From a virus: DNA of 42,323 nucleotides. The stretch spans positions 1 through 42,323 of IMG/VR virus record IMGVR_UViG_3300031933_000299. One strand, given 5' to 3'. The notes beneath the pieces are model-generated. The model made no database searches and was not told where the DNA came from. It was given only the letters and a program-made list of their open reading frames with translations. This document shows positions 1 through 42,323 of this stretch, piece after piece (within the stretch, counting starts at the first letter, position 1; each line of letters begins with the position of its first letter). Both the position numbers and the translations under genes were made by a program.

Positions 1-120
1 AACAGATGCAGCCTCATTATCTAATAGATACTCTCAAATGGTGTTTGCAGAATCCATAAACAAATGGCATGACATTTCATCTAATCTGATAGCTTCTCCT
101 ATAAATTATAATAGAAATAA

Positions 121-2118
121 ATGGAGATGATACTACGCACAAGTGAATCTAAAATAGATTATTATGTATACAGCAATTCAGGAGATTTACTTGGATCATT
201 AACAGATAGAAGCTATGCTTGTGGAAGTGGGCATTCTGGTTTTTCTCATATTGCATTTTATGGCGGTAGTATAGGCAGATATGCACAGGTTGATGTATAT
301 GATATTACTATCAGACAATATGCTAATACATCAGTCATAATAACTAATATGACCGATTATTATAAAATAGAAGTTACAAACAACGAAGAAACAGACCTTT
401 CAAATTATCAAATTCAATTAGATTCATCCGATTTAGGTATAGTTACAAACAATGAATCATGGTTATTTACTGATGTGATAGACCCTTATATAAATATTGA
501 ATTGGTTTCACCTGAAAACAATACCTACACATCAAACAATACGCTATCGTTTTCTGCAGATGGTGCTGGCAATTTATCAGCAGTATTATATATTGATTCT
601 AATCAAACGTGGGACGGTTCTATATCATCCGGGATTAACAATATAACGCCTTCTCTCTCACAAGGTTTGCATTCCTGGTATGTAAATGCATCATCTGTAT
701 ATAATGGAAGTACAGCATCCAATATAACAGGAACATGGACTTTTATATACGACACCATAAACCCCACAACAGCTAGCATAGACATTGATCCAGACTATAA
801 CAACATAGCCAATGGCACTATAGTCCAAACTAACATTGAATGGTCTGATACTAACCTAAAAAATGCATCATTCTATGTAGATTATGGCTCCGGTTACTCT
901 CTGGAAGATAGTACTACTTTCTCTGCCTCTACAGAATGGCTCAACACAAGTATAAACACCACAGGCTACACCGGGGAAACTATCTCATGGTATCAGATAG
1001 CCTACGATGAAGCCGGGAACAGCTACACATACAGCGATTCTTTCAACGTGGTTCTGAATGCTCTTAATATCTATGTCTATGATGAAACAACATCTCAATC
1101 TATTCTACCCTCTAATGTAGTGATCTATAACGAGGATATCAGCAAAGAAGCTACAATATCAGAAGTAACAAACATATCAAGCTTAAGTTATGATGGTCTT
1201 TCATCTGATAAATACATAGTAAGAGTTTCAGCAGACGGCTACTACTCAAGACAATCTATTCTCTATGTAGACATAACAAGCTTGTCTGAGCTTGACGTGT
1301 ACCTACCTTCAGAGGGTGAAACTGTAATCTTTGATCAGTTCGCTCTAACAGACAATACAGGCTCATATGATGAAGGCGACTGCATCATAAGATTAGACAA
1401 GCCTTTGGTAGATGGTACTGATACGGTATTCTCATCATATTTTGATTTTGACGGCGTGGCCTCTACTTACCTCATTGCATCAGATCAGTATATTCTCTAT
1501 GTGGAAACACCAGACAGAACCATAAGCTACGGTTGGCTCTCTCCTGACGCTGACGGCGTAATAGATATCATTATCAGTAATACGCCAGTAGGAGAAATAG
1601 AAGAATGGCTTAATTACTCACTCACTCACGATGACTACGGAGTAATTTCATTCTCTTATGAATCCAATTTAGCAATAGATAATGTAGACTTCTGGGTAAA
1701 TGCCACCAATGGCACAAATCTATACTCTGCATCCAGTGGCTCAGATATTGGCAGCTTCACTTATACAGGCTCAAACGACAGTACTTATTATGCCAGCTTC
1801 TCAGCTCTCAGTGAATCCGGTAAAACAATATCTATTACAAGAGTAATCACATTCACAGGTAGCGGCGTTCAGGATGACATGTTAAACTTCCTTCCTGAAG
1901 ATGCACCCGACTGGCTCTATAATCTCATTGGCGGCTCTATCGTTGTAATCTCTGTTCTTATGTTCGGTCAGTTCAGAATGGACGTAGGCTGCGTAATAGG
2001 CGCATCCTTGGCGGGTCTGTTCTGGTATTGGGGATTGCTGCAAATAGAAGGTATAGTAGTAGCTGTAGGTGCCATTATCGCAGTAGCTGCGGTTCTGAAT
2101 CGCTCCCGGAGGTCCTGA
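121..2118 (+). CDS. Large beta-rich surface/virion protein with C-terminal transmembrane helices (spike/adhesin-like); N-terminus probably lies upstream in another frame
   Basis: 665 aa, S/T/N/D/Y-rich with many N-x-S/T sequons and hydrophobic C-terminal segments ending in NRSRRS. No signal peptide at 121; frame +2 is open from 2 to 130. Confidence 0.75.
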   Translation: MEMILRTSESKIDYYVYSNSGDLLGSLTDRSYACGSGHSGFSHIAFYGGSIGRYAQVDVYDITIRQYANTSVIITNMTDYYKIEVTNNEETDLSNYQIQLDSSDLGIVTNNESWLFTDVIDPYINIELVSPENNTYTSNNTLSFSADGAGNLSAVLYIDSNQTWDGSISSGINNITPSLSQGLHSWYVNASSVYNGSTASNITGTWTFIYDTINPTTASIDIDPDYNNIANGTIVQTNIEWSDTNLKNASFYVDYGSGYSLEDSTTFSASTEWLNTSINTTGYTGETISWYQIAYDEAGNSYTYSDSFNVVLNALNIYVYDETTSQSILPSNVVIYNEDISKEATISEVTNISSLSYDGLSSDKYIVRVSADGYYSRQSILYVDITSLSELDVYLPSEGETVIFDQFALTDNTGSYDEGDCIIRLDKPLVDGTDTVFSSYFDFDGVASTYLIASDQYILYVETPDRTISYGWLSPDADGVIDIIISNTPVGEIEEWLNYSLTHDDYGVISFSYESNLAIDNVDFWVNATNGTNLYSASSGSDIGSFTYTGSNDSTYYASFSALSESGKTISITRVITFTGSGVQDDMLNFLPEDAPDWLYNLIGGSIVVISVLMFGQFRMDVGCVIGASLAGLFWYWGLLQIEGIVVAVGAIIAVAAVLNRSRRS

Positions 2119-2119
2119 C

Positions 2120-2491
2120 ATGGTATCATTTAAATCTGTAATAACTGCTCTATTGTTGATCCAGATTAGTATAGGTGTCATTAACATGACTGGAATATTC
2201 ACAGTCCAGGAAGATGTGAATGTAATTGACAGCGGTCAAATTGCTAATATTACAGATTCCCTTAACTCAAGTGCAAATAAGGACAGTAGCGCTCTCGATT
2301 ATTTCGCAACATTAGGTTCATTCGCATATAATGGTCTCAGATTGGCAATGCAGTTTTTCTGGATGGCTATAACCGGAGTTCCCACGATCTTAAAATTATT
2401 CCTTATGCCTGATGGACTTGCAGATCTGATAGGTTATGCAGTTGAAGTGCTCTTAGTGCTCGGAATAGTCTATAAATTATTCACGAGGTGA
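2120..2491 (+). CDS. Small membrane protein (N-terminal signal/TM plus C-terminal TMs)
   Basis: 123 aa with hydrophobic segments; GGAGGT RBS overlaps the upstream stop. Confidence 0.8.
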   Translation: MVSFKSVITALLLIQISIGVINMTGIFTVQEDVNVIDSGQIANITDSLNSSANKDSSALDYFATLGSFAYNGLRLAMQFFWMAITGVPTILKLFLMPDGLADLIGYAVEVLLVLGIVYKLFTR

Positions 2492-2496
2492 TATGA

Positions 2497-2853
2497 ATGG
2501 CTAACATAACACAGATAGACCCGGAAGCGTTCAATATCACCGCTTACCCCAGTATTATGAAATTCACTAACCTATCCAGCTATGATGCAATTTTCACACC
2601 TTTTACTGATATCTGGATAGGACAGGTTTATGGTCAATGGTGGTGGGTTCTTGTTTTGTTCGTTACGGTAGGAACAACCCTTGTTAAATCAAAAGAAATA
2701 TTCCCTACTGCCTTTGTTCTGTTAATAGTATCCTCAATACTCTCTCAGGCTGTACCTCCTGAGATTCAAACAATAATGTATCTGCTCATGGTATTGGGAT
2801 TCTTCGGAGCTTTGTATGGATGGTTTGAAGATCGTAACGGAGGAATGTACTGA
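2497..2853 (+). CDS. Small multi-pass membrane protein
   Basis: 118 aa, three hydrophobic segments (WWWVLVLFVTVG, FPTAFVLLIVSSIL, IMYLLMVLGFFGALYGWF); GAGGTGA RBS. Confidence 0.8.
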   Translation: MANITQIDPEAFNITAYPSIMKFTNLSSYDAIFTPFTDIWIGQVYGQWWWVLVLFVTVGTTLVKSKEIFPTAFVLLIVSSILSQAVPPEIQTIMYLLMVLGFFGALYGWFEDRNGGMY

Positions 2854-3014
2854 TGTTTGTAATTGATGATAGAGGCAAAGCCCGAAAAATAAGTGATATT
2901 GAAGATATAGAAAAAATCAACAAAAAGACAATGAGAGTCTTTGATGATGACGGCAAGATGTTAGCCAGGAAGATGTCTAAAAGTGCATTAAAAGCTAAAT
3001 TTGGAGGCAGATAA
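2853..3014 (+). CDS. Small hypothetical protein (53 aa, MFVIDDRGKARK...)
   Basis: ATG overlaps the upstream TGA; GGAGG RBS; stop abuts the next ATG. Below the ORF-track length cutoff. Confidence 0.6.
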   Translation: MFVIDDRGKARKISDIEDIEKINKKTMRVFDDDGKMLARKMSKSALKAKFGGR

Positions 3015-3404
3015 ATGAAGTTCTTGAAAAGAAAATATGCTGAGTTCAAAGAGGACAAAGCAAAGGAGAAAGCAATAGACAAGAAGATCAAGCAAGTCCA
3101 GGAAGGCCAGAAGATAGCAGCAGAAAAAAAGAATCTTATAAGCATGGGTCTATCTGATGATGAAGCAGAATTTAAGGCTCGCAAGAATATGAAGAAGGCT
3201 AACCGCAAAGAAAAGATTGATTCCTTGGTATCTGGAGTTGGTGGTGCTGTTGATGCTCTCTCTATGGATATGGGTATAGATTCAGATCTTCCAGCAAAAA
3301 AGAAAAGCTCAGGCTCAAAGAAGAAATCCAAACCCAAAAAAAAGAAAGGTAAAGGTGGAGGCGGTAATCCCTTGAATATGGATTTGCCGGGATTTAAGTT
3401 ATAA
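3015..3404 (+). CDS. Lys-rich basic hypothetical protein (possible DNA-binding)
   Basis: 129 aa with a KKKSSGSKKKSKPKKKKGK tail; GGAGG RBS; last gene of the + strand operon. Confidence 0.75.
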   Translation: MKFLKRKYAEFKEDKAKEKAIDKKIKQVQEGQKIAAEKKNLISMGLSDDEAEFKARKNMKKANRKEKIDSLVSGVGGAVDALSMDMGIDSDLPAKKKSSGSKKKSKPKKKKGKGGGGNPLNMDLPGFKL

Positions 3405-3409
3405 TTAGG

Positions 3410-3802
3410 TTATGTATTTGATGTAAAATATTCTGTCATCACTTTTAATGAGTATATAATAATTACAAAAATCATTATGTAGATATATATCTCAATTTCT
3501 TTTTTATTTATAATGGGTTTCTTTATTCTTTCTGCTTTGCTGTTATCTATAATGTCTGGAGTAATATGCGTGGTAGTTCTGGAGTAATTTGTGTATTTGC
3601 TGTAGGGTTTCTTTATTGGTATTCTGGCACAATTATGAGTTTCAGGTAAACGATGTTTTGAACAGAAAGTTCCACCACAGCCCCGGCATGTAAAAGGAAG
3701 CGGCAAAGTTTTTGATTTTATTCTTTTATTGCCTCCGGTTTCATAAGAATAGGTATCTCCTCCTATCTCCTCTCCGCAAAAATCACATTTCATTTTTACC
3801 AC
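3410..3802 (-). CDS. AN1-type zinc-finger protein with C-terminal TM helix
   Basis: CDFC...LPFTCRGCGGTFCSKHRLPETHNC matches the AN1 pattern; hydrophobic IYIYIMIFVIIIY near the C-terminus. Confidence 0.8.
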   Translation of the reverse strand: MVKMKCDFCGEEIGGDTYSYETGGNKRIKSKTLPLPFTCRGCGGTFCSKHRLPETHNCARIPIKKPYSKYTNYSRTTTHITPDIIDNSKAERIKKPIINKKEIEIYIYIMIFVIIIYSLKVMTEYFTSNT

Positions 3803-4059
3803 TGTACACTATAATATTTTATACAATGGTTATTAATAATCATTAATAGCTTTTTTGCTATGTCTTTAAAGCACTTTGGGAGCACACTTCAAATACATCT
3901 TTTTTGCTTCAGGTGGCTTAATTCTATTATACAACTCCTCTGCATCCCTCGGAGCATCTCCTCTTATCCATCTGCGAAAATCTTTAGGCATTCCGTTTTG
4001 CCTTGCATGAGTGGTCCAGCAATGCCGGAAACAATCATGGTTTAAAAAATCAAAATAAG

Positions 4060-4965
4060 TTAATAATCAATCAGTCGAGGAACACTCCTTAAGTAATCCT
4101 TCCTGACAAGTTCCATGTCTACAGCGAGATAATGTCCTGTCCAGACCTTATCATTAAGGGAGTGGCCTAAAAGTGTCTTAATGTGCTCCTCCTTCATTCC
4201 TGCGCGCCGTAAATGGGTTACCAGAAAGCCACGGAAGCAATGACTTGTAAGCTGTGCTTCAAGTGGTCCTATAGGGTCATGTAGCCCGATGGGTTCCGCA
4301 TATGCCTGAATGAATTGGTTAATATAATCTTTGTGAACTCTGCCGCCAGTGTCAGAAATCCATAAGTAGCCTGTTTTACACTTCCCCAGTCGCGCGCGGG
4401 CATTCCTCCATGCAAGGTACTTTTCAAGAACTACGTGCAATTCATCATCTATGAATCTGATACGGTTCTTTGCTCGTTTCTTCCTGACAATTACAATCGT
4501 GTCTCTGGTAAGGTCAATGTCTTCCGGCTTTAGCTCTAACAGTTCTGACCTTCTGATACCTGTCTTTGCAAGGATCATAACTATGGCAATTTCCCGGATA
4601 AAATCAAGTGAGTTAATTAATTGTCTGGCCTGATCAATTGTCAGTACTTGCCTGCGGTCTGAATCGCATGATGTGTCAAGATATCTTTTTCTAAATCCTG
4701 ATACTGGATTCTTATCAGTGACCTGTTTGTAAATTAGAAATTCATAAAAAGACGAGATAGCAGAAAAGTTAGATTTCAGGGTGCTTACTTTTAATTCCCT
4801 CTCCAGTAAATGCCCTAAGTAGTATTCTAAATCTTCATAGGTTACGTTTTCAGGTTCTGGATTATGCTCTAAAAACTCTTTTACATTGCATGAATAGCTG
4901 CGTATTGTCCTGTGGGTGCGTCTACGCAATGCTAAATCATTCTCAAATTTCTTAAGTATCTCCAC
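4060..4965 (-). CDS. int: Tyrosine recombinase/integrase (XerC/D-like)
   Basis: N-terminal SAM-like core-binding region; catalytic motifs TGIRRSEL (R), KK, HCFR (HxxR), LLGH and C-terminal Y (GHYL). Confidence 0.93.
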   Translation of the reverse strand: MEILKKFENDLALRRRTHRTIRSYSCNVKEFLEHNPEPENVTYEDLEYYLGHLLERELKVSTLKSNFSAISSFYEFLIYKQVTDKNPVSGFRKRYLDTSCDSDRRQVLTIDQARQLINSLDFIREIAIVMILAKTGIRRSELLELKPEDIDLTRDTIVIVRKKRAKNRIRFIDDELHVVLEKYLAWRNARARLGKCKTGYLWISDTGGRVHKDYINQFIQAYAEPIGLHDPIGPLEAQLTSHCFRGFLVTHLRRAGMKEEHIKTLLGHSLNDKVWTGHYLAVDMELVRKDYLRSVPRLIDY

Positions 4966-5095
4966 GTTTTAATCACCTTTTTTTAAGTGTTGCGGCTATA
5001 TGGAGCTTTACATGATTAATATATTATGAAAGAGTGTTTTTAAAAACAATAGGCTATGGCTTTAATCTTTGGAAAAACAAGAAGAAAAGGGTGAA

Positions 5096-5111
5096 TGCGC
5101 CGACCGGGATT
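5096..5111 (-). other. Putative attP core identical to a tRNA 3' end (likely tRNA-Gly; T-loop crossover)
   Basis: Minus strand reads AATCCCGGTCGGCGCA = end of T-loop, 3' T-stem, 3' acceptor strand and discriminator A of a tRNA starting GCGCCGA. It lies about 130 bp upstream of the integrase; the rest of the tRNA is absent. Confidence 0.65.
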
Positions 5112-5410
5112 AGTTCCTCAATTTGAGGTTCCAATCCCGTGGCCTTCATTCACCCGATGATAACAAAGAAACCGTGGGATTAAGCAGAATCACGGTTTTA
5201 ACCTGTTGGCGCAGGCTGCCACATCAGGACAATTAAGTATTGTATTTCGTAGTATTTTAATCTTTTTTCTGATGCTTATATAAATGTCATATATACAGTT
5301 CGTAAAAACACGAACAAACAGTACAATAAACTTTATATATCTTTCTTTCTAATCTTAGTTCAGTAAGAATTTGGCGATTCTTACGGACAAAATCAACGAA
5401 GGATGAAGCA

Positions 5411-5617
5411 ATGAAAGACTTAATAACAAGTAGCGGAAGCTCTATTTTAAAAGCTTGCACAGAAGAAACACACTGTAAAAGGTGTAATAATCTATTCTCA
5501 ATCCAATCCCTACACCAGGGATATTGTTTTACCTGCTCAGTCGAGAACTTCAAAAAAGAGCAGCTTGCAAAATTAGGATTTGACTATATTTTACCAATAC
5601 TTGCAACGGAGGCCTAA
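5411..5617 (+). CDS. Small Cys-containing hypothetical protein (possible Zn finger)
   Basis: CKRC...CFTC motifs; first gene of the rightward operon. Confidence 0.6.
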   Translation: MKDLITSSGSSILKACTEETHCKRCNNLFSIQSLHQGYCFTCSVENFKKEQLAKLGFDYILPILATEA

Positions 5618-5620
5618 ACA

Positions 5621-5821
5621 ATGTCCTCCACACTTACCAATGATGAAGCGGACTCTATTTCTCCATGTACCATCACTCACTCCACAGGGTCCGCAAACAC
5701 TTCCCTTGAAAACAGCGCCTTTGAATCTCTCGGCTCCCAAAGGGCAAGAGATGCAGCCAGAGTAAGAGCAAGGCGCGTATTTTCACAATCAGGCCATACA
5801 GGGGGCCTAAACAATGAATGA
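5621..5821 (+). CDS. Hypothetical protein
   Basis: GGAGG RBS before the ATG; packed within the operon. Confidence 0.5.
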   Translation: MSSTLTNDEADSISPCTITHSTGSANTSLENSAFESLGSQRARDAARVRARRVFSQSGHTGGLNNE

Positions 5822-6059
5822 TATCTTTCATTATCCTGAAGAACTCGAAAGATGGCGCAAGCATAACAATCACTGTAAAAAAGTATCTTCTGCAGTTCGT
5901 AAAAGTGGCAATCAGCACAATCTCACATCAGAAAAAAGAAAGCAACAGGCCATTACACTATATATTAAACATGGTTCATTAGGTCACGTTTGCAGCACCT
6001 TACGTATGGGTCGTAACACCCTTGTTAATATTCTTAAGGAGGCTGGAGTCTATGAGTAA
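5814..6059 (+). CDS. Small HTH DNA-binding protein
   Basis: AITLYIKHGSLGHVCSTLRMGRNTLVNILKEAGV is HTH-like. Confidence 0.65.
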   Translation: MNDIFHYPEELERWRKHNNHCKKVSSAVRKSGNQHNLTSEKRKQQAITLYIKHGSLGHVCSTLRMGRNTLVNILKEAGVYE

Positions 6060-6318
6060 AACATGCGGCTCCTGTGCTCATGCCAAAGATCATGAAGAAA
6101 AAAGAGAGATTCTGCGTCATTGGTGCACTAATAAAAATCAATGGATGCTCTCAGACTGTAAACGCTGCACAGAAGGCATAGACGAATTAATGCATGTTCC
6201 TCACTGCTTACTCTGTACTCATGATAATTCAGGCTGTCTGGTATGTAAAGCAGGAGTTCTCAGAGTTCATACAGACGATGGCATTAAGGCACCTAAGAAC
6301 TGCTCTCGCTATAACTAA
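6052..6318 (+). CDS. Cys-rich zinc-binding protein
   Basis: Several CxxC motifs; start moved from 6022 to ATG 6052 (GGAG RBS, overlaps upstream stop). Confidence 0.65.
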   Translation: MSKTCGSCAHAKDHEEKREILRHWCTNKNQWMLSDCKRCTEGIDELMHVPHCLLCTHDNSGCLVCKAGVLRVHTDDGIKAPKNCSRYN

Positions 6319-6327
6319 GGTGCTCCA

Positions 6328-7794
6328 ATGGCTGATAAGTTCAAATTCGCCGAGCCTGTTACGCATGAGTTTGGTGCATTTTTCCTCTATAAAGAGCTGG
6401 ATCTATATAATTCAGTAATCAACTACTTCATGCACTCTGTAGATGATCCATATAACCACTATCTTACACTCAGCACTCGAAGGTTTAAATTCTTCTCAAA
6501 ACCCGGAGGACTAAAGAACCCAAAGACCGGGAAAATAGCATTTGAGTATATACTTACATGGAAAGATGCATTCGGAGCAAGTAAATGCACATTCACAATT
6601 AAGCCGCTCTTCGGAGCCGGCACCAAAACAAAAACAGGCAAAACCCTGAACCTACCAACAGTAGGCACTCAGATACAGGTTCAATCCAGTTACATAGAAC
6701 TCGATGAGCTACTAACTCTGTTTGAATCTTTCATGGATCAGATAGATGCTGCAAGGTTTGTCTATTCTCTTGACCGTAACAATTCTAAAATATACCAGAT
6801 GGCCCGGCACGTCAGGTATCATGAATCCTATGAGAACACAGTAGCCGGAATGCTCCAAAAAATAGAGCAGGAATCTTCCACCTTAGGAGATGTAAATCTA
6901 ACCAAACAAATGGACTCCGGCAAATACTACATGTACTATCTCTCAAACCCGGACTTCAAAGTATGTAATATTAATACAAAATTCAGTCACTCAGTAAAAA
7001 CATACAGAATCAAGAACTATAAAGAGCGCACTTCTGCAGACCCTCTCAGACATCCAAAGCTCGAAGTATTCTTGCATTCAGATGATAACAACCCTTCAAT
7101 TAATCAGTATCTCGAACTCAAAAGGGATTTAGACGACTTACTTATCAAACTATTAAGCTTTGTACAACCGATTGAATATGTTACAGACGAATACTTTGAC
7201 GGAGAAAGAGTCTTTGAATACAGAAACAAGCTCCCAATATGGGACTATGAAAACCTTCCAAACCCAGACATAGACGGTTTTGATCTCTGGCACCATCCTG
7301 AGAAAACATTATCCGTACTTGCCTACATTGCCACACAGTCAGAAGGCTGTACGGAGTTCAGGCAAATATCAGAAGCTCTTACTATTCCTATTCGTTCATT
7401 ATGGCGTTATATCAATCACTGGAAATGTGAGGGTGTATTAGATACAAAGCGCAAAGAATGCACCTATGTATTTTTCAAATCTAAGAGCCTCTGGCAATCT
7501 ATCAAAGAACCTATTCTACAGGTTTGCTCATTCCTAAAAATCAACTTTAAGAGGGTCTGGGGTCAGACGTTCATAGATTCTGGTGTAATCCGTAATTTCA
7601 GAGAACGCCGTAAAAAGAACTTGAAACCTCACAAAGTAACTGGCGATGATAAAAGAGAATTAGTTGTCGTTGACGATGCCAGGAAAGCAAACGCTCTTAG
7701 GAAGGAACTGAGGGAAGAGGGAGTATCACATTTATTCAAAATTGGGATAGCCTCCACAAAATCAAACATGCGGTATAGTCGGGTAATCAATTAG
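6328..7794 (+). CDS. Putative replication initiator resembling the betapleolipovirus conserved protein (HRPV-3 ORF9-like), with C-terminal winged HTH
   Basis: VKTYRIKNY...DPLRHPKLEV resembles the motif I recall for this family; wHTH-like segment TEFRQISEALTIPIRSLWRYINHWKCEGVL. Recognised from memory only. Confidence 0.55.
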   Translation: MADKFKFAEPVTHEFGAFFLYKELDLYNSVINYFMHSVDDPYNHYLTLSTRRFKFFSKPGGLKNPKTGKIAFEYILTWKDAFGASKCTFTIKPLFGAGTKTKTGKTLNLPTVGTQIQVQSSYIELDELLTLFESFMDQIDAARFVYSLDRNNSKIYQMARHVRYHESYENTVAGMLQKIEQESSTLGDVNLTKQMDSGKYYMYYLSNPDFKVCNINTKFSHSVKTYRIKNYKERTSADPLRHPKLEVFLHSDDNNPSINQYLELKRDLDDLLIKLLSFVQPIEYVTDEYFDGERVFEYRNKLPIWDYENLPNPDIDGFDLWHHPEKTLSVLAYIATQSEGCTEFRQISEALTIPIRSLWRYINHWKCEGVLDTKRKECTYVFFKSKSLWQSIKEPILQVCSFLKINFKRVWGQTFIDSGVIRNFRERRKKNLKPHKVTGDDKRELVVVDDARKANALRKELREEGVSHLFKIGIASTKSNMRYSRVIN

Positions 7795-7925
7795 CGTAAG
7801 CTATGGAGAAATGAAACAATGAAAGAAAATAGAAAACAGGCATTCGTTGCAAGATTGAAAGTAAGACGTGAAATGAAGAAAGGAAAGGATTCCAAGAACC
7901 CATAGATAAGGAAGTGATTAATAAA

Positions 7926-8129
7926 ATGCCAATCGGAGAAATGACAGATTATAGGGGATGTGGTTTCGAAACTGACCACAAAGATGGGAGTAAGTTTTGG
8001 ACTACTTACATCTACAACAGGGTTGCCCCCTACGAGTATGAACTACTAACAATATTACAGTTCCTAGGTGAACCAACACTAGAGAGAATCCAGAAAAATA
8101 TAGACCAAGAGGTTTATGGCGAGTGGTGA
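7926..8129 (+). CDS. Small hypothetical cassette gene
   Basis: Follows the motif copy at 7897-7916; ATG 7926 preferred over GTG 7914. Confidence 0.65.
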   Translation: MPIGEMTDYRGCGFETDHKDGSKFWTTYIYNRVAPYEYELLTILQFLGEPTLERIQKNIDQEVYGEW

Positions 8130-8197
8130 AACTGCCAAATAGAGGAAGTATGAACAATGGATAGATACAAACTACCCATAGAAAAGGAAGTGAAGAG

Positions 8198-8527
8198 ATG
8201 AGTTTCAAACGAGGCCGGGATATTAAGGAAGCAAATCGCAGAATATCAGGTTTAATGAAGAGTATCAAAGAAGTGGAATCTCAAAATATTGAGATCAAAG
8301 AAAGAATTGCAGACAACAACGCCCAGATCTACTCTTTGCAGGACAATGTTTCTGAATTGCGTATTGAAAATGCTGCATATGAGGAATCAATCGAAGATAA
8401 TAATGAATGGATCGAGGAAGCAAAGACTGAGATTAACCAGTTAAAAAATATGTTTGAAGGTGTAGAGATAAGGGCATGTGATAAGCCACGACCTGACAGT
8501 GAGAAGCGGCTTACAGCATTCACATAA
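8198..8527 (+). CDS. Coiled-coil hypothetical cassette gene
   Basis: 109 aa with heptad-like pattern; bounded by motif copies at 8174 and 8526. Confidence 0.75.
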   Translation: MSFKRGRDIKEANRRISGLMKSIKEVESQNIEIKERIADNNAQIYSLQDNVSELRIENAAYEESIEDNNEWIEEAKTEINQLKNMFEGVEIRACDKPRPDSEKRLTAFT

Positions 8528-8582
8528 CCCATAATAAAGGAAGTGGAACGATGGAAGATGAAGATTTTATCATGGAAGAACC
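8528..8582 (+). repeat. 55-bp exact direct repeat of the window end (42269-42323)
   Basis: Base-by-base identity over 55 nt; the preceding bases differ (a8527 vs c42268). Confidence 0.97.
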
Positions 8583-8913
8583 CGAATGGGATAAAATAAA
8601 TGCAGAGATTCATGCAGAAGAGCAAGAGCAAGAGCGCAAAGATAAGGCCATTCTTGAGCAGGTTAAACAACAAGTCTCTCCTACAATTTACCAACAGATT
8701 CAATCAGAAATCGAGGAATCAGGATACACCCACGACTATCGAATTGTCGATGCTCCAAAGGGTGATTTTCAAGACCGTTCAAATGAATATGATGATTATT
8801 TTCTTAATATGTGGGTTGATCAGTACTCCGGGTATTTTGGAGATGATTTTCATGGAACAGTAGATATTGAGCTATCAGAAGGTAAATACCTGCGCTGGTC
8901 ATTTTCAATGTAA
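8551..8913 (+). CDS. Acidic hypothetical cassette gene (its start recurs at 42292)
   Basis: 120 aa flanked by motif copies; the first codons reappear at the window end. Confidence 0.8.
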   Translation: MEDEDFIMEEPEWDKINAEIHAEEQEQERKDKAILEQVKQQVSPTIYQQIQSEIEESGYTHDYRIVDAPKGDFQDRSNEYDDYFLNMWVDQYSGYFGDDFHGTVDIELSEGKYLRWSFSM

Positions 8914-9124
8914 TACCTAAACCCCATAAAGAAGGAAGGATTAACATGTACTTTCGTGGCTTCACCTTTCATTTATTTGTACGTGGAAGCAATGAAACGG
9001 TTAAATCAAGATGAATAAACCACCCAATAAAGGAAAACTTCCAATAGAAAATTGATATTTTCCTTTTTCAGTATTATTATAAGGAAGTTTTTTTCCTATA
9101 CAATGCACAAATCTGAAATTTATA

Positions 9125-9148
9125 TTTCAACTTTCCTTTTTATAGTCA
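9125..9148 (+). promoter_or_regulatory. Putative late promoter TTTCAACTTTCCTTT(T/A)(T/A)ATA upstream of portal
   Basis: Same motif at 11735, 12511 and 19342; TATA-like core; motif start is 42 bp before the ATG here and at 11735. Confidence 0.75.
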
Positions 9149-9166
9149 TCGCCTGAATTTTTCTAC

Positions 9167-10870
9167 ATGTCAATTCTCAACAAACTCTTCTCATCGACTC
9201 CACCACAGCAAAAGAAAACATCACCTGTTGGTGCCTATGTAGGCGATGATCCTTATCAAACCTACATAACAACATTGAAATGGATCAAAGACACGAAAGC
9301 CAAAATGCCAGACGGGTCGGTGTTCGAAGTCACACCGTCCATGAGAGAGGAAGCCTTCGAAACAGATCCTCTACTGAAAGGAACGATCACACCGTTTCTT
9401 AAGAATTCCATTTTAGGAGATTACCAGCTGGCAACAGAAGACAACAAGAAATACGAACCTGCACTCAGGGAGATCAGGCAATATCTTAACGAAATTGGCC
9501 TACTTGATGCATTCAGAGATGACTTCAAGGACCTTACAATTATCCATGGTCATGCATACCGCCGCAAGGATCCTGACAAGGACAGTATAGAATCCCTTGC
9601 ACCTCTCAAAAATGCCACAATCACAACATATCGGGATCCGTGGGATAGCACTACAGTGGCATATCATCAGAAGATATATGTAGATGATTCGTGGACCGAG
9701 AATCCGTCAACATCTGAGTATAATTCCTGGTTCATTCCCAATGGTGGCAGATACATCAAAGGTGAGTATGAAGACCGTGGTGCAAAAGCACAGTTTGATT
9801 TCATCAAAACGAAGTATGGAATCACAGATACTACAAACCTGAGAGTAGATTCATCAGACCGCATTGTTGCCATGCATCGGGTGGATCCGGACGAACCTGC
9901 ACCGATTGATTCTGCAATTCTGGCCATATGGTTAAAGCGTCTACTTCTGACAAACTCACCTAATATCATTTTCAGAGTACTCTCGCCATTCGTTCACATC
10001 AAAAATGGACTTGTCCTTGAGACCACAGGAGCAGATGGTGGAAAGGATCTCATCACCACGGTACCGCAGCAACCACCAGAGGAAATGTCGACAACTGATC
10101 CAGAGAGATATGCAGCCGAGAGTTCAATCTACAATGCATGGGTCACTGCATGCAAGACAGCTGCAAAGAACGTACTTACATCATTGAAAGATGGTGGTAT
10201 CTTCAGTTCAGGTCCTGATACAGAACTCGAGGTCGTTGAATCCGGCAGGTCGGTACCTTCCTCATTCATCAAAACAATGCTGGACCTACTTGATCAGGAA
10301 ATAGGACAGGCATTTGGGTTCCCGGTTGCACTTGTGAAGGCGAATGGTTCTGAATTGGCAACTTCACGTACTATCCTGGAACTTTTCAACACAACCTATG
10401 CAGGTGTGAGAAGAGAATATGAGAAAGTAGCTGACAAACTCATCAGAGAGAGATTTGAGGGCATGTCATGGCAGTATGAGGTACCTACAAAAGATGGCGG
10501 TACCGAAACAGGCACGTTCACATTTGATGATATGGCCTGTCATTTCAAATTGTCTGTTACTGATGTAAGTGACCAGCTGAAGGAAGCCCAGGCCAAGTTG
10601 CAGAAGATGAAGATACTTCAGATAGCCAAGCAGGTCGGAGCTGACAGGTCAGACATTCAGGCGCTCGGAGAAGAATACGGCTTTGGAATGCTCGACCTTG
10701 ACAATTACGACAATGCTCAGGATATCCCACAAACACCCTTCGGGGACGGTGCCGGCATGTCAACCCGGAGTACTGCAGAAGACCTAGAACCCTCTGAAGC
10801 AACTGACCCAGCTGACGAACTATACCAAGTCTACCTCAATGCAAAGGACAAAATCAAGGAGTTAGTATGA
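9167..10870 (+). CDS. Portal protein
   Basis: 567 aa; first gene of the head operon, before the MuF-like gene and after terL on the closed circle. Assigned mainly from size and synteny. Confidence 0.75.
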   Translation: MSILNKLFSSTPPQQKKTSPVGAYVGDDPYQTYITTLKWIKDTKAKMPDGSVFEVTPSMREEAFETDPLLKGTITPFLKNSILGDYQLATEDNKKYEPALREIRQYLNEIGLLDAFRDDFKDLTIIHGHAYRRKDPDKDSIESLAPLKNATITTYRDPWDSTTVAYHQKIYVDDSWTENPSTSEYNSWFIPNGGRYIKGEYEDRGAKAQFDFIKTKYGITDTTNLRVDSSDRIVAMHRVDPDEPAPIDSAILAIWLKRLLLTNSPNIIFRVLSPFVHIKNGLVLETTGADGGKDLITTVPQQPPEEMSTTDPERYAAESSIYNAWVTACKTAAKNVLTSLKDGGIFSSGPDTELEVVESGRSVPSSFIKTMLDLLDQEIGQAFGFPVALVKANGSELATSRTILELFNTTYAGVRREYEKVADKLIRERFEGMSWQYEVPTKDGGTETGTFTFDDMACHFKLSVTDVSDQLKEAQAKLQKMKILQIAKQVGADRSDIQALGEEYGFGMLDLDNYDNAQDIPQTPFGDGAGMSTRSTAEDLEPSEATDPADELYQVYLNAKDKIKELV

Positions 10871-10921: not shown

Positions 10922-11734
10922 GTGGAGTGCTCACAATTGGCCTCTGAGATTGATCCTGAGACGTTTGACCAGCAGGTAGACCAACTACTCTTAGGTGTCA
11001 CTGCCACTCAGTCAGATGAGCTTGTGAAGTTGATTACAGCCTATTACAAAGCAGGTTCTGATGATGTTCGACCCAATACTCGCCTGACCAATGTTCAGAA
11101 GAATGCTATTAAGAAGCTTTCAGCTGAACACTTCGGCTACATCAGTGAGTTTAATCGCAATGTCGGTGACCAGATCAAGAACAAGGCAAGAGAGCTACTG
11201 AACGAGGGGAAAGGCTATGCTGAAATCTCAGAAGAAATCAGAACCTACGCAGAAGATGTATTTGGCGGGTCAGAGAGGGTTGTTATCGACAATACAGGAA
11301 AGAAGAGAACTGTCTTCAAAGTGGGAAAGGATGGCACAATTCGAAAGACATCAAAGATTATCGAACGTCCGTATGTGACCAACACTCAAGCATATTCTGA
11401 CATGCTTTCGAGGACTGCAACACATACAGCATGGGAGCAGGGCAGAGCAACGGAATACCAACGTATGGGTTTTTCTAAATTCCGGCTGACAGGTCCCGTG
11501 GATGAGAGAGCACGCCCCGATCATGTCGCAGCTTTAGGGTTTGTTTACGAGTATGGAACCGAGCAAGGTAACTATGCACTTTCATTATTAGAAGAACCCA
11601 ATTGCAGACATCGTCAGATTCCTATATTTGGTGACCCGAAGCTCGACACACCGATGTCATTCTTTGAAGAACAAAAAGAGAAAGCTGGCCTGTACTTCGA
11701 TGATGATGCAGGTGAGTGGAAGTTCAGAGAGTGA
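10922..11734 (+). CDS. Minor head protein, SPP1 gp7/Mu gpF-like (start may be TTG 10937)
   Basis: SRTATHTAWEQGR...VDERARPDH...PNCRH pattern; follows portal. Confidence 0.8.
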   Translation: MECSQLASEIDPETFDQQVDQLLLGVTATQSDELVKLITAYYKAGSDDVRPNTRLTNVQKNAIKKLSAEHFGYISEFNRNVGDQIKNKARELLNEGKGYAEISEEIRTYAEDVFGGSERVVIDNTGKKRTVFKVGKDGTIRKTSKIIERPYVTNTQAYSDMLSRTATHTAWEQGRATEYQRMGFSKFRLTGPVDERARPDHVAALGFVYEYGTEQGNYALSLLEEPNCRHRQIPIFGDPKLDTPMSFFEEQKEKAGLYFDDDAGEWKFRE

Positions 11735-11758
11735 TTTCAACTTTCCTTTAAATAGTCA
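11735..11758 (+). promoter_or_regulatory. Putative late promoter upstream of protease
   Basis: tttcaactttcctttaaatagtca; 42 bp to ATG 11777. Confidence 0.75.
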
Positions 11759-11776: not shown

Positions 11777-12988
11777 ATGATTATTTCAACTGTTCTTTCA
11801 GAAAAACCACTCGTCGAAGGTAACAGTGTAACTCTGGCCATCTGCCGAGCAGGCACTAAAGCATATGACGAAAAGGGTAAAGAGTACACCATCACACAAT
11901 CTGCAATCGATTCAAGTGCCGATACATATTCAGGTGGAATCATCACCATCAATCACAAAGTCAAAGAAAATGGCAAGATCACAAAGTCTTGGCAAGACGG
12001 AGAGTTCATCAAAGCCACCGTGGAAGGACTTTCGCAGGCATGTGTGGATGCTATTAATTCAGCTGCTTATCGTGGTGTTTCGCAGGAATCTACTGACGCA
12101 GAGTTCGCTGACAAGAACAGCACCGATATTATCAAACTCAAAGGAACTGGTGTAACTTTTGTGTTCTATCCTGAGAATCCTGCATGTCCTTTGAATAAAG
12201 GATGTGGTGTTCCGATTGCTTCTACCATGGTAACGGCAGATGGGAACTATGAGAGACATTCTTTTGATGTAGCTGTCGAAAACAATGCAGGTACCCTTGT
12301 AAAAGTTAGTGAGATATCGGTGTACTTAGATGGTGATGAAATTGGTGATAAAGATATCCTCAAGAAAAGGATCCTGCAAGAAGCCATGTTCATAGGTGCC
12401 GGTCAGTACAAAATCTTCAATGTTGATACCTCACTCGAAACCGGTGATGTAATTCCTGCAGACAAAGAAGTTGTTCATGATGTGAATATTTCTGTATCAA
12501 TGTTAAAGAGTTTCAACTTTCCTTTAAATACCCATAATGAAAAACTTGAATCAAATACTCCTGGAGGGGTAAACATAACTGAAGCCGACCAAAGCGCAAA
12601 ACTTGAATCAACTGTCTCTGATCTCAAAACAGAGAACAAGGATCTCAAGTCCACTATCACTGAACTCCGTCAGGAGCTCAAAGAGAAGGACGGAAAGATT
12701 GAGAGCACGGTGAATGCAGCCGTGAAAGCTGCTCTGGAATCACACGACAAAGCACTCAAGGAACAGACCGAACGCGACTCTATTCTGACCGAACTCAAGT
12801 CAACCGTTTCTGATGAGACACTCGCTGGGTTCAAAGATGTACCAACATTTGCACTGAAAAGTACACTTGCAGCAATCAAGGAGAGCGCAGGGAAGCGCGT
12901 GGGAGCAAACAGCGGGACCGGTGTACAGAGCACCACAGATGAGGAGGACTATGCCTCACTGGGTGTAACATCAATCGAGGTGGAATAA
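11777..12988 (+). CDS. Prohead protease with C-terminal coiled-coil scaffold domain
   Basis: N-terminal INH and GVSQES candidate catalytic His/Ser; C-terminal heptad-rich region; lies between MuF and cement/MCP. Confidence 0.75.
   Translation: MIISTVLSEKPLVEGNSVTLAICRAGTKAYDEKGKEYTITQSAIDSSADTYSGGIITINHKVKENGKITKSWQDGEFIKATVEGLSQACVDAINSAAYRGVSQESTDAEFADKNSTDIIKLKGTGVTFVFYPENPACPLNKGCGVPIASTMVTADGNYERHSFDVAVENNAGTLVKVSEISVYLDGDEIGDKDILKKRILQEAMFIGAGQYKIFNVDTSLETGDVIPADKEVVHDVNISVSMLKSFNFPLNTHNEKLESNTPGGVNITEADQSAKLESTVSDLKTENKDLKSTITELRQELKEKDGKIESTVNAAVKAALESHDKALKEQTERDSILTELKSTVSDETLAGFKDVPTFALKSTLAAIKESAGKRVGANSGTGVQSTTDEEDYASLGVTSIEVE
12511..12530 (+). promoter_or_regulatory. Putative late promoter inside the protease ORF
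   Basis: 20/20 match (tttcaactttcctttaaata) to the copies at 11735 and 19342, followed by GGAGGGG at 12563-12569. Confidence 0.65.
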
Positions 12989-19337: not shown

Positions 19338-19341
19338 TGAT

Positions 19342-19361
19342 TTTCAACTTTCCTTTAAATA
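19342..19361 (+). promoter_or_regulatory. Putative late promoter for the tail operon
   Basis: tttcaactttcctttaaata in the intergenic gap before 19424. Confidence 0.7.
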
Positions 19362-19423
19362 CTCAAAAACAAAACTCCACTCTGTAGAGAACCTACATTC
19401 TAATCACAAGTGGAGAACCCACG

Positions 19424-26483: not shown

Positions 26484-26714
26484 TTACATAAATTCCTCGA
26501 ATTTCTCCGGATGCTTCTTGACATATTCGGACAGGACCTTCAGCATCTGTTGTTCATCGTCTTCTACTTCAAGAGCTGCTTCTGTTGTCAGGGCCATACT
26601 GCAGGATGAACAGTACTTTGCAGTAGGTCCATTCATGGTATTGCAGCGCGGACACTTTCTCGGCAACAGGTCGGATGCCGTTTCTTCTTTTTCCCTGAGG
26701 CCATAGTGTTCCAA
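26484..26714 (-). pseudogene. C-terminal Zn-ribbon remnant of an archaeal tyrosine integrase
   Basis: LLEHYGL...PRKCPRCNTMNGPTAKYCSSCSMAL..EAALE resembles C-terminal tails of methanogen integrases; no catalytic domain upstream. Confidence 0.6.
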
Positions 26715-39714: not shown

Positions 39715-40169
39715 TGTCCACACAAAAACTAACAAAATGGAATTGGACCCATCAAAGGATGAAAGCAGCTAAACTGATGGCAACCACCAGCATGACACAT
39801 GAAGAAATTTCAAAAGAATGTGGGGTCAGAAGAGAGACTGTCACCGTTTGGAACCAACATCCCGATTTTAAAGAGAAGGTTACAGAGTTGATTCTCCTCG
39901 ATGAGAGAGCAACAAAGGCAGGCATTCTCAAAAGAGCAATGGATTCGCTTGAAAAGAAGACAGAAAAAGTCGACGATGACAAGACCACCGAATTGGATTA
40001 TCTCAAATTCATCTCAGAGTTCCAGGGCCACACAAAGCAAGGTGGTGATCTCATTATCAATAATGCTACTGCAGTTGTGATGTCACCAGAGGTTTCCGAA
40101 AAGGCGAACGAGTTGTCAAGGATTTTGACATTGAATGCGATTGAGCAGGAGGAAGCTGATGAGCAGTGA
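39714..40169 (+). CDS. terS: Terminase small subunit
   Basis: N-terminal HTH (THEEISKECGVRRETVTVW); directly upstream of terL. Confidence 0.75.
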   Translation: MSTQKLTKWNWTHQRMKAAKLMATTSMTHEEISKECGVRRETVTVWNQHPDFKEKVTELILLDERATKAGILKRAMDSLEKKTEKVDDDKTTELDYLKFISEFQGHTKQGGDLIINNATAVVMSPEVSEKANELSRILTLNAIEQEEADEQ

Positions 40170-41574
40170 AATACCTCCCGAAATGTATACAGTCACACCG
40201 GCACTCTTTGCACAGTACTGCAGCCGGTTCAAGTGGTTTGCTTATGAATATCTTCTTGTGCTGTCAGATGCTCTTATCAAAGTTGCAACCGGGGAAACAA
40301 AGCACCTCATGATATTCATGCCACCAAGACATGGGAAATCCGAGCTTGCATCAAAGTATTTCCCTGCCTGGTTCCTTGGACACAACCCTGACAAAAGAGT
40401 CATGTTGACTTCATATGAAGCAGACTTTGCAGCTTCTTGGGGATACAAGGCCAGAAACATCCTTGATGAAAATGGTCACCTGTTTGGCCTGAAAGTATCC
40501 GGTGCATCTGCCGCAAGAAACAGGTGGGACATTGAAGGACACAACGGTGGAATGGTCACTGCTGGTGTAGGTGGCCCAATCACAGGAAAGGGAGCTCACC
40601 TTCTAATCATTGATGATCCTGTCAAGAACTCCGAGGATGCCAATTCAAAGACCATGCGAGACAAGGCAGCCGAATGGTACAAGTCAACTGCATATACCAG
40701 ACTTGAACCAGGTGGAGCTGTTATCATCATTCAAACAAGGTGGCATGAAGATGATCTGTCAGGCAGACTACTTGAAGAAGAACCTGACAAATGGACCGTT
40801 ATCAATCTACCTGCGATTGCAGAGGAAGAAGATCCTTTGGGCAGGATGCCTGGTGAAGCACTATCACCTCATCGTTACACCGTTGAAGATCTCACAGAGA
40901 TTAAGAACACACTTGGTCCACATTGGTTCAGTGCTCTTTATCAGCAGCATCCACAGCCACTTGAAGGAGCTATCTTCAAACAACCACATTTCAAATACTG
41001 GAAACCTATCTCAGACGGATATGATCTCGGTGGGAAGAGAGTTCCTGCTTCAACATGCAGGGTATTTCAGACATGTGATCCAGCGGCTTCTACCAAATCC
41101 ACTGCTGATTATTTTGTACTTGGAACATGGGCACAGACAAAAGATAACGACTTGATTCTGCTTGATCTGTTGAGGAACAGGCTCGAAGGACCTGACCAGG
41201 TCAACCTCTTCAAATCTCAATATCAAAAGTACAGTCCAGCATTCCAGGCAGTTGAATCAAACGGTGCTGGTAAGGTTCTCTATCAGATGCTTGTGAGGGA
41301 AGGACTGCCAGTGAGGGAACTCAAAGCTGACAAAGACAAGGTCACAAGGGCTTTACCTGCAGCTGCACGAATGGAAGCCGGTACAATATATTTTCCCGCA
41401 AAAGCTCCATGGTTGGGTGATTTTGAGAACGAGCTTTTATCGTTCCCGTCTGGTGTGCATGATGACCAGGTTGATGTTTTGAGTTATGCAGTTCAGCTTG
41501 TGATTCAGAAGAGAGAGTCAAAGGTTCCAAAATTCAATACAGGTTTTGGAATTTCAGGTGGGATGAGAATATGA
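40159..41574 (+). CDS. terL: Terminase large subunit
   Basis: Walker A MPPRHGKS; Walker B LLIIDDP; IQTRWHEDDL; nuclease domain CDPA...DY; HDDQVD. Confidence 0.96.
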   Translation: MSSEIPPEMYTVTPALFAQYCSRFKWFAYEYLLVLSDALIKVATGETKHLMIFMPPRHGKSELASKYFPAWFLGHNPDKRVMLTSYEADFAASWGYKARNILDENGHLFGLKVSGASAARNRWDIEGHNGGMVTAGVGGPITGKGAHLLIIDDPVKNSEDANSKTMRDKAAEWYKSTAYTRLEPGGAVIIIQTRWHEDDLSGRLLEEEPDKWTVINLPAIAEEEDPLGRMPGEALSPHRYTVEDLTEIKNTLGPHWFSALYQQHPQPLEGAIFKQPHFKYWKPISDGYDLGGKRVPASTCRVFQTCDPAASTKSTADYFVLGTWAQTKDNDLILLDLLRNRLEGPDQVNLFKSQYQKYSPAFQAVESNGAGKVLYQMLVREGLPVRELKADKDKVTRALPAAARMEAGTIYFPAKAPWLGDFENELLSFPSGVHDDQVDVLSYAVQLVIQKRESKVPKFNTGFGISGGMRI

Positions 41575-41597
41575 ATACGTTTTTTGGGTTCCGCTCT

Positions 41598-42288
41598 CCC
41601 ATAGTATAGGAAGTTTTGAACATGAAAGTTTTGATAGCTTGTGAGTTTAGCGGAATTGTCAGAACTGCATTTGAGGAAGCCGGACACGATGCTATGTCAT
41701 GCGATCTTTTGCCTTCGGAGATTCCAGGTAATCACTATCAAGGTGATGTTAGAGAGGTTCTTAATAATGGTTGGGATATGATGGTTTGTCATCCTCCGTG
41801 TACTCATCTGGCTGTGTCTGGTGCTAGATGGTTCAAAGGCAAGCAGGAAGAACAAAAGGAAGCTCTGGAGTTTGTCAGGATTCTAATGTCTGCTCCTATT
41901 GAAAAGATAGCTCTGGAGAATCCTGTGAGCATAATTAGTTCACATATCAGGAAACCAGATCAATATATTCAACCGTGGCAATTCGGACACCCAGAAACCA
42001 AAAAAACAGGATTGTGGTTAAAGGGTTTGCCTTGTCTGAAACCTACTAAAATAGTAGAAGGCAGAGAAAACAGAGTGCATAGAATGCCACCATCAGAGGA
42101 TAGATGGAAGGAACGAAGCCGGACTTATACGGGTATTGCTAAAGCTATGGCTGAACAGTGGACTACCTAAACCACCCAATAAAGGAAAACAGAATGAAGA
42201 TAACCCATAAAGAAGGAAAACATGAACAGAAAACTACGTGAGTGGATAGATCAGAAGTATTCAGAAACCCCATAATAAAGGAAGTGGA
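41598..42288 (+). repeat. Intergenic repeat CCCATA-N5-GGAA, cluster 3 (41598; variant 42169; 42202; 42266)
   Basis: cccatagtataggaagt; taaaccacccaataaaggaaaac (23/23 identical to 9016-9038); aacccataaagaaggaaaac; aaccccataataaaggaagtg. Confidence 0.88.
41622..42170 (+). CDS. C5-cytosine DNA methyltransferase-like protein
   Basis: MKVLIACEFSG (motif I variant), HPPC (motif IV), LENP (motif VI). Confidence 0.85.
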   Translation: MKVLIACEFSGIVRTAFEEAGHDAMSCDLLPSEIPGNHYQGDVREVLNNGWDMMVCHPPCTHLAVSGARWFKGKQEEQKEALEFVRILMSAPIEKIALENPVSIISSHIRKPDQYIQPWQFGHPETKKTGLWLKGLPCLKPTKIVEGRENRVHRMPPSEDRWKERSRTYTGIAKAMAEQWTT

Positions 42289-42323
42289 ACGATGGAAGAT
42301 GAAGATTTTATCATGGAAGAACC

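Follow-up and report, generated by a model that had tools for sequence, protein, structure and literature searches.

Virus record IMGVR_UViG_3300031933_000299 in IMG/VR raises the question of whether its single contig describes one genome or two. The window analysed here is the entire record, since the assembly has only this one contig of 42,323 bases, and the question arises from a repeat on the plus strand: positions 8528-8582 recur as positions 42269-42323, the final 55 bases of the record. A first-pass annotation of the sequence had reported this repeat as exact, and we confirmed identity over all 55 bases; the chance that the last 55 bases match any internal site is negligible (~4e4 x 4^-55). 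On the left, the repeat is limited by A at 8527 versus C at 42268, and on the right the 55-nt match stops at 42323 only because the record ends there. Weaker similarity extends over another 13 bases to the left (68 nt at 94% in total); these bases make up the 5′ half of the recurrent motif ATTC-N5/6-CCCATAATAAAGGAAGTG and add no homology. Each copy holds the motif CCCATAATAAAGGAAG (8528-8543 in the first copy), a spacer of 7 nt and the opening 32 nt of a 120-aa gene (8551-8913), in agreement with the annotation, which had read the repeat as the motif plus the start of a gene whose product begins MEDEDFIM. The first copy is preceded by positions 1-8527 (the tail), and the second by a 17-aa ORF of the sequence between them (8528-42268; the loop).

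Paths that SPAdes and metaSPAdes trace around circular molecules end in a repeat of length k, with a default top k of 55 for reads of up to 150 nt. The repeat is like such an overlap in being exact, in having a standard k length and in that one of its copies forms the very 3′ terminus of the contig. The ordinary form is seen in G001, a circular IMG/VR relative of the loop with a 127-nt end-to-end overlap (direct terminal repeats). The present record differs in that the other copy is internal and in that the contig appears to hold two replicons instead of one circle. Because this other copy lies at 8528 and not at the 5′ end, the path takes the form of a tail plus a cycle (a ‘lollipop’). A figure-of-eight graph containing a complete second element was rejected: the opening 55 nt of the record do not recur anywhere in it, so the remainder of the element represented by the tail is absent from the record and this element does not close on the loop.

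The circular head-tail virus

Closing position 42268 onto 8528 yields a circular, complete head-tail virus genome of 33,741 bp (8528-42268, plus strand), in which the gene for the large terminase subunit (40135-41574, plus strand; Pfam Terminase_6N and Terminase_6C) precedes the 120-aa gene, the putative portal gene, a prohead protease-like gene and a major-head-like gene. That this segment forms a coherent circle had been proposed by the annotation and was borne out by G001 (31,907 bp), which shows the same order of terminase, small cassettes and putative portal, is collinear with window positions 8525-41614 at 75-99% identity and contains the exact 55-mer. In G001, 19 nt separate the stop codon of the terminase gene from the motif, after which comes the 120-aa gene. 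The annotation had also treated positions 1-8527 as foreign to the circle, and indeed they gave no match to G001. Genes of the tail were found between terminase and portal in none of the four relatives for which both genes were found (G001/L015, L017, L021/L023 and the G089 provirus), nor did they match any of the head-tail-relative loci that we retrieved.

The 567-aa product of 9167-10870 (plus strand) had no match in Pfam, PHROG, NCBIfam or PDB sequence searches; we call it a putative portal protein from the position of its gene, which directly follows the terminase gene in relatives, and from the UniRef names of its homologues, those of Methanosarcina being called portal. The loop further encodes a RecT-family protein and an ERCC4-like nuclease, and has no integrase. 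A megablast search of the whole window against GenBank phages returned no match. An integrated relative of the virus was found in a Methanosarcinaceae chromosome, G089, with a portal homologue that is 85-86% identical. The NCBI protein at this level of identity comes from Methanolobus sp. WCC5, which is probably the organism that carries the G089 chromosome. The G089 provirus extends from L053:9856 to L054:17983 (G089:C1, about 881.8-910.0 kb) and its ends correspond to window positions 26.4-27.3 kb and not to the terminase-portal junction. We recognised an integrase at neither of these ends, and the 80 kb at this provirus contained no copy of the motif.

Two further features of the loop were observed. 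Four copies of a ATTTCAACTTTCCTTTAAATAGTCA-like box (9124-9148, 11734-11758, 12510-12534 and 19341-19365) occur in the loop only, ahead of structural gene blocks, and are candidate late promoters. A 76-aa ORF on the minus strand (26484-26714) has homologues that adjoin DUF7845 elements (see below) at five chromosomal loci; judged by this homology, its family is a second gene family common to the head-tail virus and integrating elements.

The tRNA-Gly-integrating element in the tail

The tail (1-8527, plus strand) covers part of the genome of an excised tRNA-Gly-integrating element; homologues occur in chromosomal integrated elements. Its relatives sit integrated in Methanosarcinaceae chromosomes, and its tetranucleotide composition correlates with that of Methanolobus loci at r = 0.93-0.94 versus 0.66-0.75 with the loop, the quarters of which correlate among themselves at r = 0.91-0.94. 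By composition and gene content, the tail is thus most likely a replicon separate from the loop and an element of Methanolobus-type methanogens. A tyrosine integrase is encoded on the minus strand at 4060-4965 (Pfam Phage_integrase, PF00589, 1.3e-19, plus a SAM-like N-domain), and shares 84% identity with its counterpart in a ~16-kb provirus of G071. Beside it lies an attachment site, also on the minus strand (5073-5111), with a 17-nt core (5095-5111) that equals the 3′ end of tRNA-Gly(TCC) and a remaining part (5073-5094) that resembles the flank downstream of tRNA-Gly(TCC). A 491-nt query matched 45 of 177 Methanosarcinaceae genomes, with most matches on query positions 134-172, i.e. window positions 5073-5111, and tRNA-Gly genes are present at the chromosomal sites that match. 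In G071 the core is found at both provirus ends (attL and attR), with the arms 16 kb apart; since these arms are contiguous in the window, the tail carries attP and hence the excised form.

The largest tail gene (121-2118, plus strand) encodes a 665-aa protein with a hydrophobic C-terminal anchor and is followed by three small conserved genes (2120-2491, 2497-2853 and 3015-3404). The same four-gene module is found in the chromosomes G086 (65% amino acid identity) and G053 (45%), while G091 has the large protein alone (49%). The 665-aa protein and its neighbours matched no family in Pfam or PHROG; the large protein is a candidate virion or envelope protein. Apart from a zf-AN1 protein and small regulators, the tail also encodes a DUF7845 protein (6328-7794, plus strand; Pfam DUF7845, 1.9e-27), the product of a core gene of the integrated-element family. 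Homologues that are 40-62% identical occur in Methanolobus, Methanomethylovorans, Methanococcoides and Methanohalophilus chromosomes, and a distant match links the protein to a winged-helix protein of Pyrococcus abyssi virus 1. The annotation had referred to a ‘Rep’ gene in the tail. A gene is present there, but Pfam makes 6328-7794 a DUF7845 protein, with at most a putative role in replication. A provirus in G053 that is related to the tail encodes an RCR Rep and a Zot-like P-loop protein.

At its right end, the tail carries an array of small genes (7899-8527, plus strand) with motif copies at 7899 and 8175, each ahead of a gene: 7914-8129 (71 aa) and 8198-8527 (109 aa, coiled coil). Matches of the 109-aa protein in PADLOC were discarded as coiled-coil noise. 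Positions 7807-7914 show 87% nucleotide identity to the G071 provirus, and one Methanolobus chromosomal element has the order host genes, small regulators, DUF7845, motif-preceded small genes, unknown genes and integrase. Peptide-pattern scans of IMG/VR with the DUF7845 and 665-aa proteins of the tail, as single queries or as an alignment, returned nothing, as did a scan of JGI metagenomes for DUF7845; no second copy of the tail with downstream sequence was therefore found, and the continuation of the element after 8582 did not appear in any collection searched.

Elements and proviruses that target tRNA genes are known in archaea, e.g. temperate pleolipoviruses such as SNJ2 (PMC5861418) and PAV1-like elements. 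The tail is like them in having a tyrosine integrase beside an attP that carries a tRNA 3′ end, a large protein anchored in the membrane with small membrane proteins after it, and a replication module that varies. It is unlike them in that no sequence match to the conserved pleolipovirus core, made up of VP3-like and VP4-like proteins and a VP8-like NTPase, was obtained, and in that an NTPase gene (none in 1-8527) and the rest of the element are absent from the record.

The shared block and its recurring motif

The sequence that begins at the repeat is also shared among head-tail viruses. A block of 776 bp (8525-9300, plus strand) has no mismatch to G001 and one mismatch to each of the JGI contigs L021 and L023, and four head-tail virus contigs carry it with complete or almost complete identity. 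From 9301 onward the sequences diverge by ~12%, mainly at third codon positions, and the JGI contig L021 ends exactly at the equivalent of 9300. The annotation had set apart 8528-9040 as the shared stretch; sharing among head-tail relatives holds, but its real extent is 8525-9300 and reaches into the portal gene. The block comprises the 120-aa gene (8551-8913), a motif copy at 8923, a 22-aa ORF, a variant motif (9016-9038), one of the late-promoter-like boxes (9124-9148) and the portal gene up to its nucleotide 134.

Its first 55-84 nt were found after five unrelated upstream sequences, each of which breaks at TAA/CCCATAATAAAGG. In the window these are the 109-aa gene of the tail and the 17-aa ORF of the loop; elsewhere they are the G001 terminase plus 19 nt, a hairpin that follows ~250 nt of small ORFs (L021 and L023), and a 109-aa ORF in L022. 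This last contig ends 83 nt inside the block, and L023 from the same sample reads through: the end of L022 is the same branch in an independent assembly. L022 also carries a gene whose homologue directly follows DUF7845 in a Methanolobus element.

The 120-aa gene (plus strand) encodes an acidic protein of PHROG 33960, a family of unknown function. The family is widespread, with 236 representative relatives (clusters) at E ≤ 0.001. An AlphaFold model (pLDDT 87.5) has two helices and a five-stranded sheet; the protein had no match in Pfam or PADLOC, and fold matches from Foldseek and VIA-align did not rise above noise. The G053 provirus, which lies beside tRNA-Glu, contains homologues of the 665-aa module and integrase of the tail together with a full-length homologue of the 120-aa gene, 47-50% identical, with one in-frame TAG and a similar ribosome-binding region. 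Such a homologue within a tail-type element was found in one (G053) of the 177 Methanosarcinaceae genomes; because G053 holds both tail-type genes and this homologue, the 120-aa gene is at home in tail-type elements. The in-frame TAG (L025:18270-18713, G053:C1, about 258.3 kb) replaces a Glu codon of the window, and in Methanosarcinaceae it could mark a decayed gene or serve as a pyrrolysine or read-through codon.

The motif CCCATAATAAAGGAAG occurs 10 times in the window (7899-42284), all on the plus strand, versus 0.59 copies expected. As an exact 16-mer it gave 22 matches in one Methanolobus chromosome, compared with 3 for a control, and it clusters ahead of small ORFs in the Methanolobus chromosomes G002, G003 and G071. 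It is not a general ribosome-binding site of host genes. Motif arrays also follow the DUF7845 gene in the chromosomal elements L004, L008 (4 copies) and L010. The motif looks like TAA stops combined with a Shine-Dalgarno-like GGAAGTG 7-9 nt before an ATG, and no hairpin was evident on reading its 16-28 nt.

In the loop, a cassette array lies between the terminase gene and the block (41598-42268, plus strand): a motif copy at 41598, a 184-aa ORF (41616-42170), a variant motif (42168-42190), a further motif copy at 42204 and the 17-aa ORF (42222-42275). G001 lacks this array and has its terminase-proximal motif fused to the block; in L021, ~250 nt take the place of the array. Relatives thus have 0, ~250 or ~650 nt of cassettes at this position, a series that shows, to judge from these alignments, gain and loss between motif copies.

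Some side observations concern the same region. An exact 23-nt direct repeat, TAAACCACCCAATAAAGGAAAAC, at 9016-9038 and 42168-42190 brackets three mini-cassettes across the loop junction, as though a block had entered between two copies. Positions 41470-41613, which comprise the final 34-38 terminase codons and the next motif, behave like a mobile piece. In one Methanolobus chromosome, small ORFs located right after motif copies (L047:9224-9322, L048:8585-8686 and L049:9265-9375) resemble the terminase tail at ~50% of amino acids, and at L021:6735-6834, where the terminase is otherwise 35% identical, 78% nucleotide identity is kept only at the terminase tail. At L049:8083-9375 (G002:C1, about 1.012 Mb), a C-terminal fragment of DUF7845 is found, between motif copies, within 1 kb of a terminase-tail-like ORF; these neighbours may be a relic of earlier contact between both element types.

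Mosaic tailed-phage genomes, as described in the lambdoid and mycobacteriophage literature, have module boundaries formed by homologous recombination at short conserved boundary sequences. The present case is like these in its sharp shifts from 100% identity to unrelated or ~12% divergent sequence, which occur at gene boundaries and inside the conserved portal gene (9300); it is unlike them in that one exchange partner is a non-head-tail integrating element. A second comparison is with the PeSL mobile regulatory cassettes of T4-type phages (Arbiol et al., 2010, PMC2839356; Comeau et al., 2014, PMC4122927). In both systems, hyperplastic regions hold small ORFs of unknown function that are bordered by a short intergenic motif conserved in sequence, and insertions, deletions and replacements among close relatives break at the motif. 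The PeSL motif combines an early promoter with a terminator stem-loop, whereas the motif described here has the stop and Shine-Dalgarno-like appearance given above and is archaeal. In addition, the motif described here is common to unrelated kinds of mobile element (the head-tail virus, DUF7845 integrating elements and other chromosomal loci) and not just to a single phage lineage.

Origin of the joined record

Our preferred explanation, to which we assign a probability of roughly 0.7, is that the record is an assembly-graph walk that joined two replicons over a truly shared cassette, and not one molecule. Replicon A would be the 33,741-bp head-tail virus, and replicon B the tRNA-Gly-integrating element of Methanolobus-type methanogens, of which 8.5 kb (1-8527) are present. 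The two would co-occur in the sample, each natively carrying the same small cassette behind the motif CCCATAATAAAGGAAG. If the graph was of the de Bruijn type with k = 55, a common cassette start would make the edge of B run into the cycle of A at the first 55-mer that they share; the assembler would follow the edge of B, make one lap of A and stop on re-entering the shared 55-mer. The outcome would be a tail-plus-loop contig with its last 55 bases repeating an internal site, and B would leave the path of A after 8582. The sharing would itself arise by homologous recombination with the motif as its boundary, at which small genes would be gained, lost and swapped among mobile elements of the same hosts.

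The branch at k = 55 had been suspected by the annotation and fits an ENA contig that encodes the identical tail integrase (in a form starting with M) and has a length of 8,582 bp, i.e. 8,527 + 55. This suggests that the tail is a separate graph edge ending in the shared 55-mer, the identity of the contig with 1-8582 being judged from its length and the one identical protein. A 35,263-bp ENA contig differs from the 33,796 bp expected for the loop alone. Of the two origins that the annotation had offered, a cassette carried by both elements or a true cointegrate, the former is favoured by the five upstream contexts of the block and by the homologue of the 120-aa gene in a tail-type provirus. 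Moreover, every 56-mer over 8473-8582 has to come from reads and the motif falls far short of 55 nt, so some molecule in the sample must read from the tail through the motif into the gene start, most simply element B carrying a cassette copy of its own.

That A and B form one molecule in at least part of the population, by a crossover at the shared cassette or motif, seems unlikely, yet it has several points in its favour. The contig is exactly what such a cointegrate would yield, an identical shared sequence of at least 55 nt is available as substrate, the loop encodes RecT and the ERCC4-like nuclease, and motif-to-motif recombination clearly occurs in the group. Such a molecule could be free or reside in the host chromosome at the tRNA-Gly site of B, and relatives of the loop, which has no integrase of its own, are indeed found integrated. 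However, a cointegrate demands one event more than the graph walk does. The tail is in the attP and not in an integrated configuration, the record, whose first 55 nt have no copy in the loop, lacks the second junction (between the end of the loop and the remainder of B), and the 8,582-bp contig suggests that the tail was left unjoined in another assembly. At least 47 kb for A plus B would probably not be packaged whole by a capsid type with genomes of 31.8-33.7 kb, and the provirus in G089 ends at the equivalent of 26.4-27.3 kb instead of at the terminase-portal junction.

Two other readings appear far less probable. If B lacked the cassette, chimeric reads or a misjoin at the short motif might have created the contig: the motif alone (16-28 nt) is present in both elements, and chimeras at contig ends are common in short-read assemblies. 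We consider this very improbable, since a join at k = 55 needs overlapping 56-mers that unite tail bases with up to 52-55 nt of the block, far more than the motif provides. In addition, the tail edge ends at the same 55-mer in the 8,582-bp contig, if that contig is a separate assembly, the analogous edge in L022 joins the same block in another sample, and the gene is native to a B-type provirus. It is scarcely conceivable, finally, that the record represents one larger temperate head-tail virus, with 1-8527 as its own integration and regulation module between terminase and portal. The lack of an integrase in the loop, the occurrence of its relatives as proviruses, and the presence of the motif and the 76-aa regulator family in both parts or their relatives would be in line with such a genome; but the loop end continues to 8528 and not to position 1, the composition of the tail is clearly different, and tail genes accompany non-head-tail elements in chromosomes. 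Relatives that lack the module at that position, together with the composition and G089, led us to reject the tail as an integration module of the virus.

Given the graph walk as the preferred reading, the public virus record probably contains two genomes in one, with 8528-42268 (circular, complete) and 1-8582 (partial) as the clean units. The merged record inflates genome size and credits the head-tail virus with a foreign integrase and attP, which would mislead calls on host, lifestyle and taxonomy. A repeat of length k between a contig end and an internal site is a useful flag for such tail-plus-cycle contigs, which checks for terminal repeats miss.

The graph merge nevertheless reflects real biology, since unrelated archaeal mobile elements have an identical cassette start behind the same motif, with base-exact breakpoints. 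On a wider reading, which we offer tentatively and would not yet call probable, the conserved 16-28-nt motif is a common recombination boundary restricted to the mobile DNA of Methanolobus-type methanogens, head-tail viruses, DUF7845 elements and other chromosomal islands trade small genes, and the 776-bp block has lately spread, without any change, through several virus lineages that circulate together. In a bolder form of this reading, B would recombine with the head-tail virus via the shared block and ride in it like a satellite. The shared cassette provides a concrete, testable case of gene flow between different types of viruses and plasmids that share a methanogen host.
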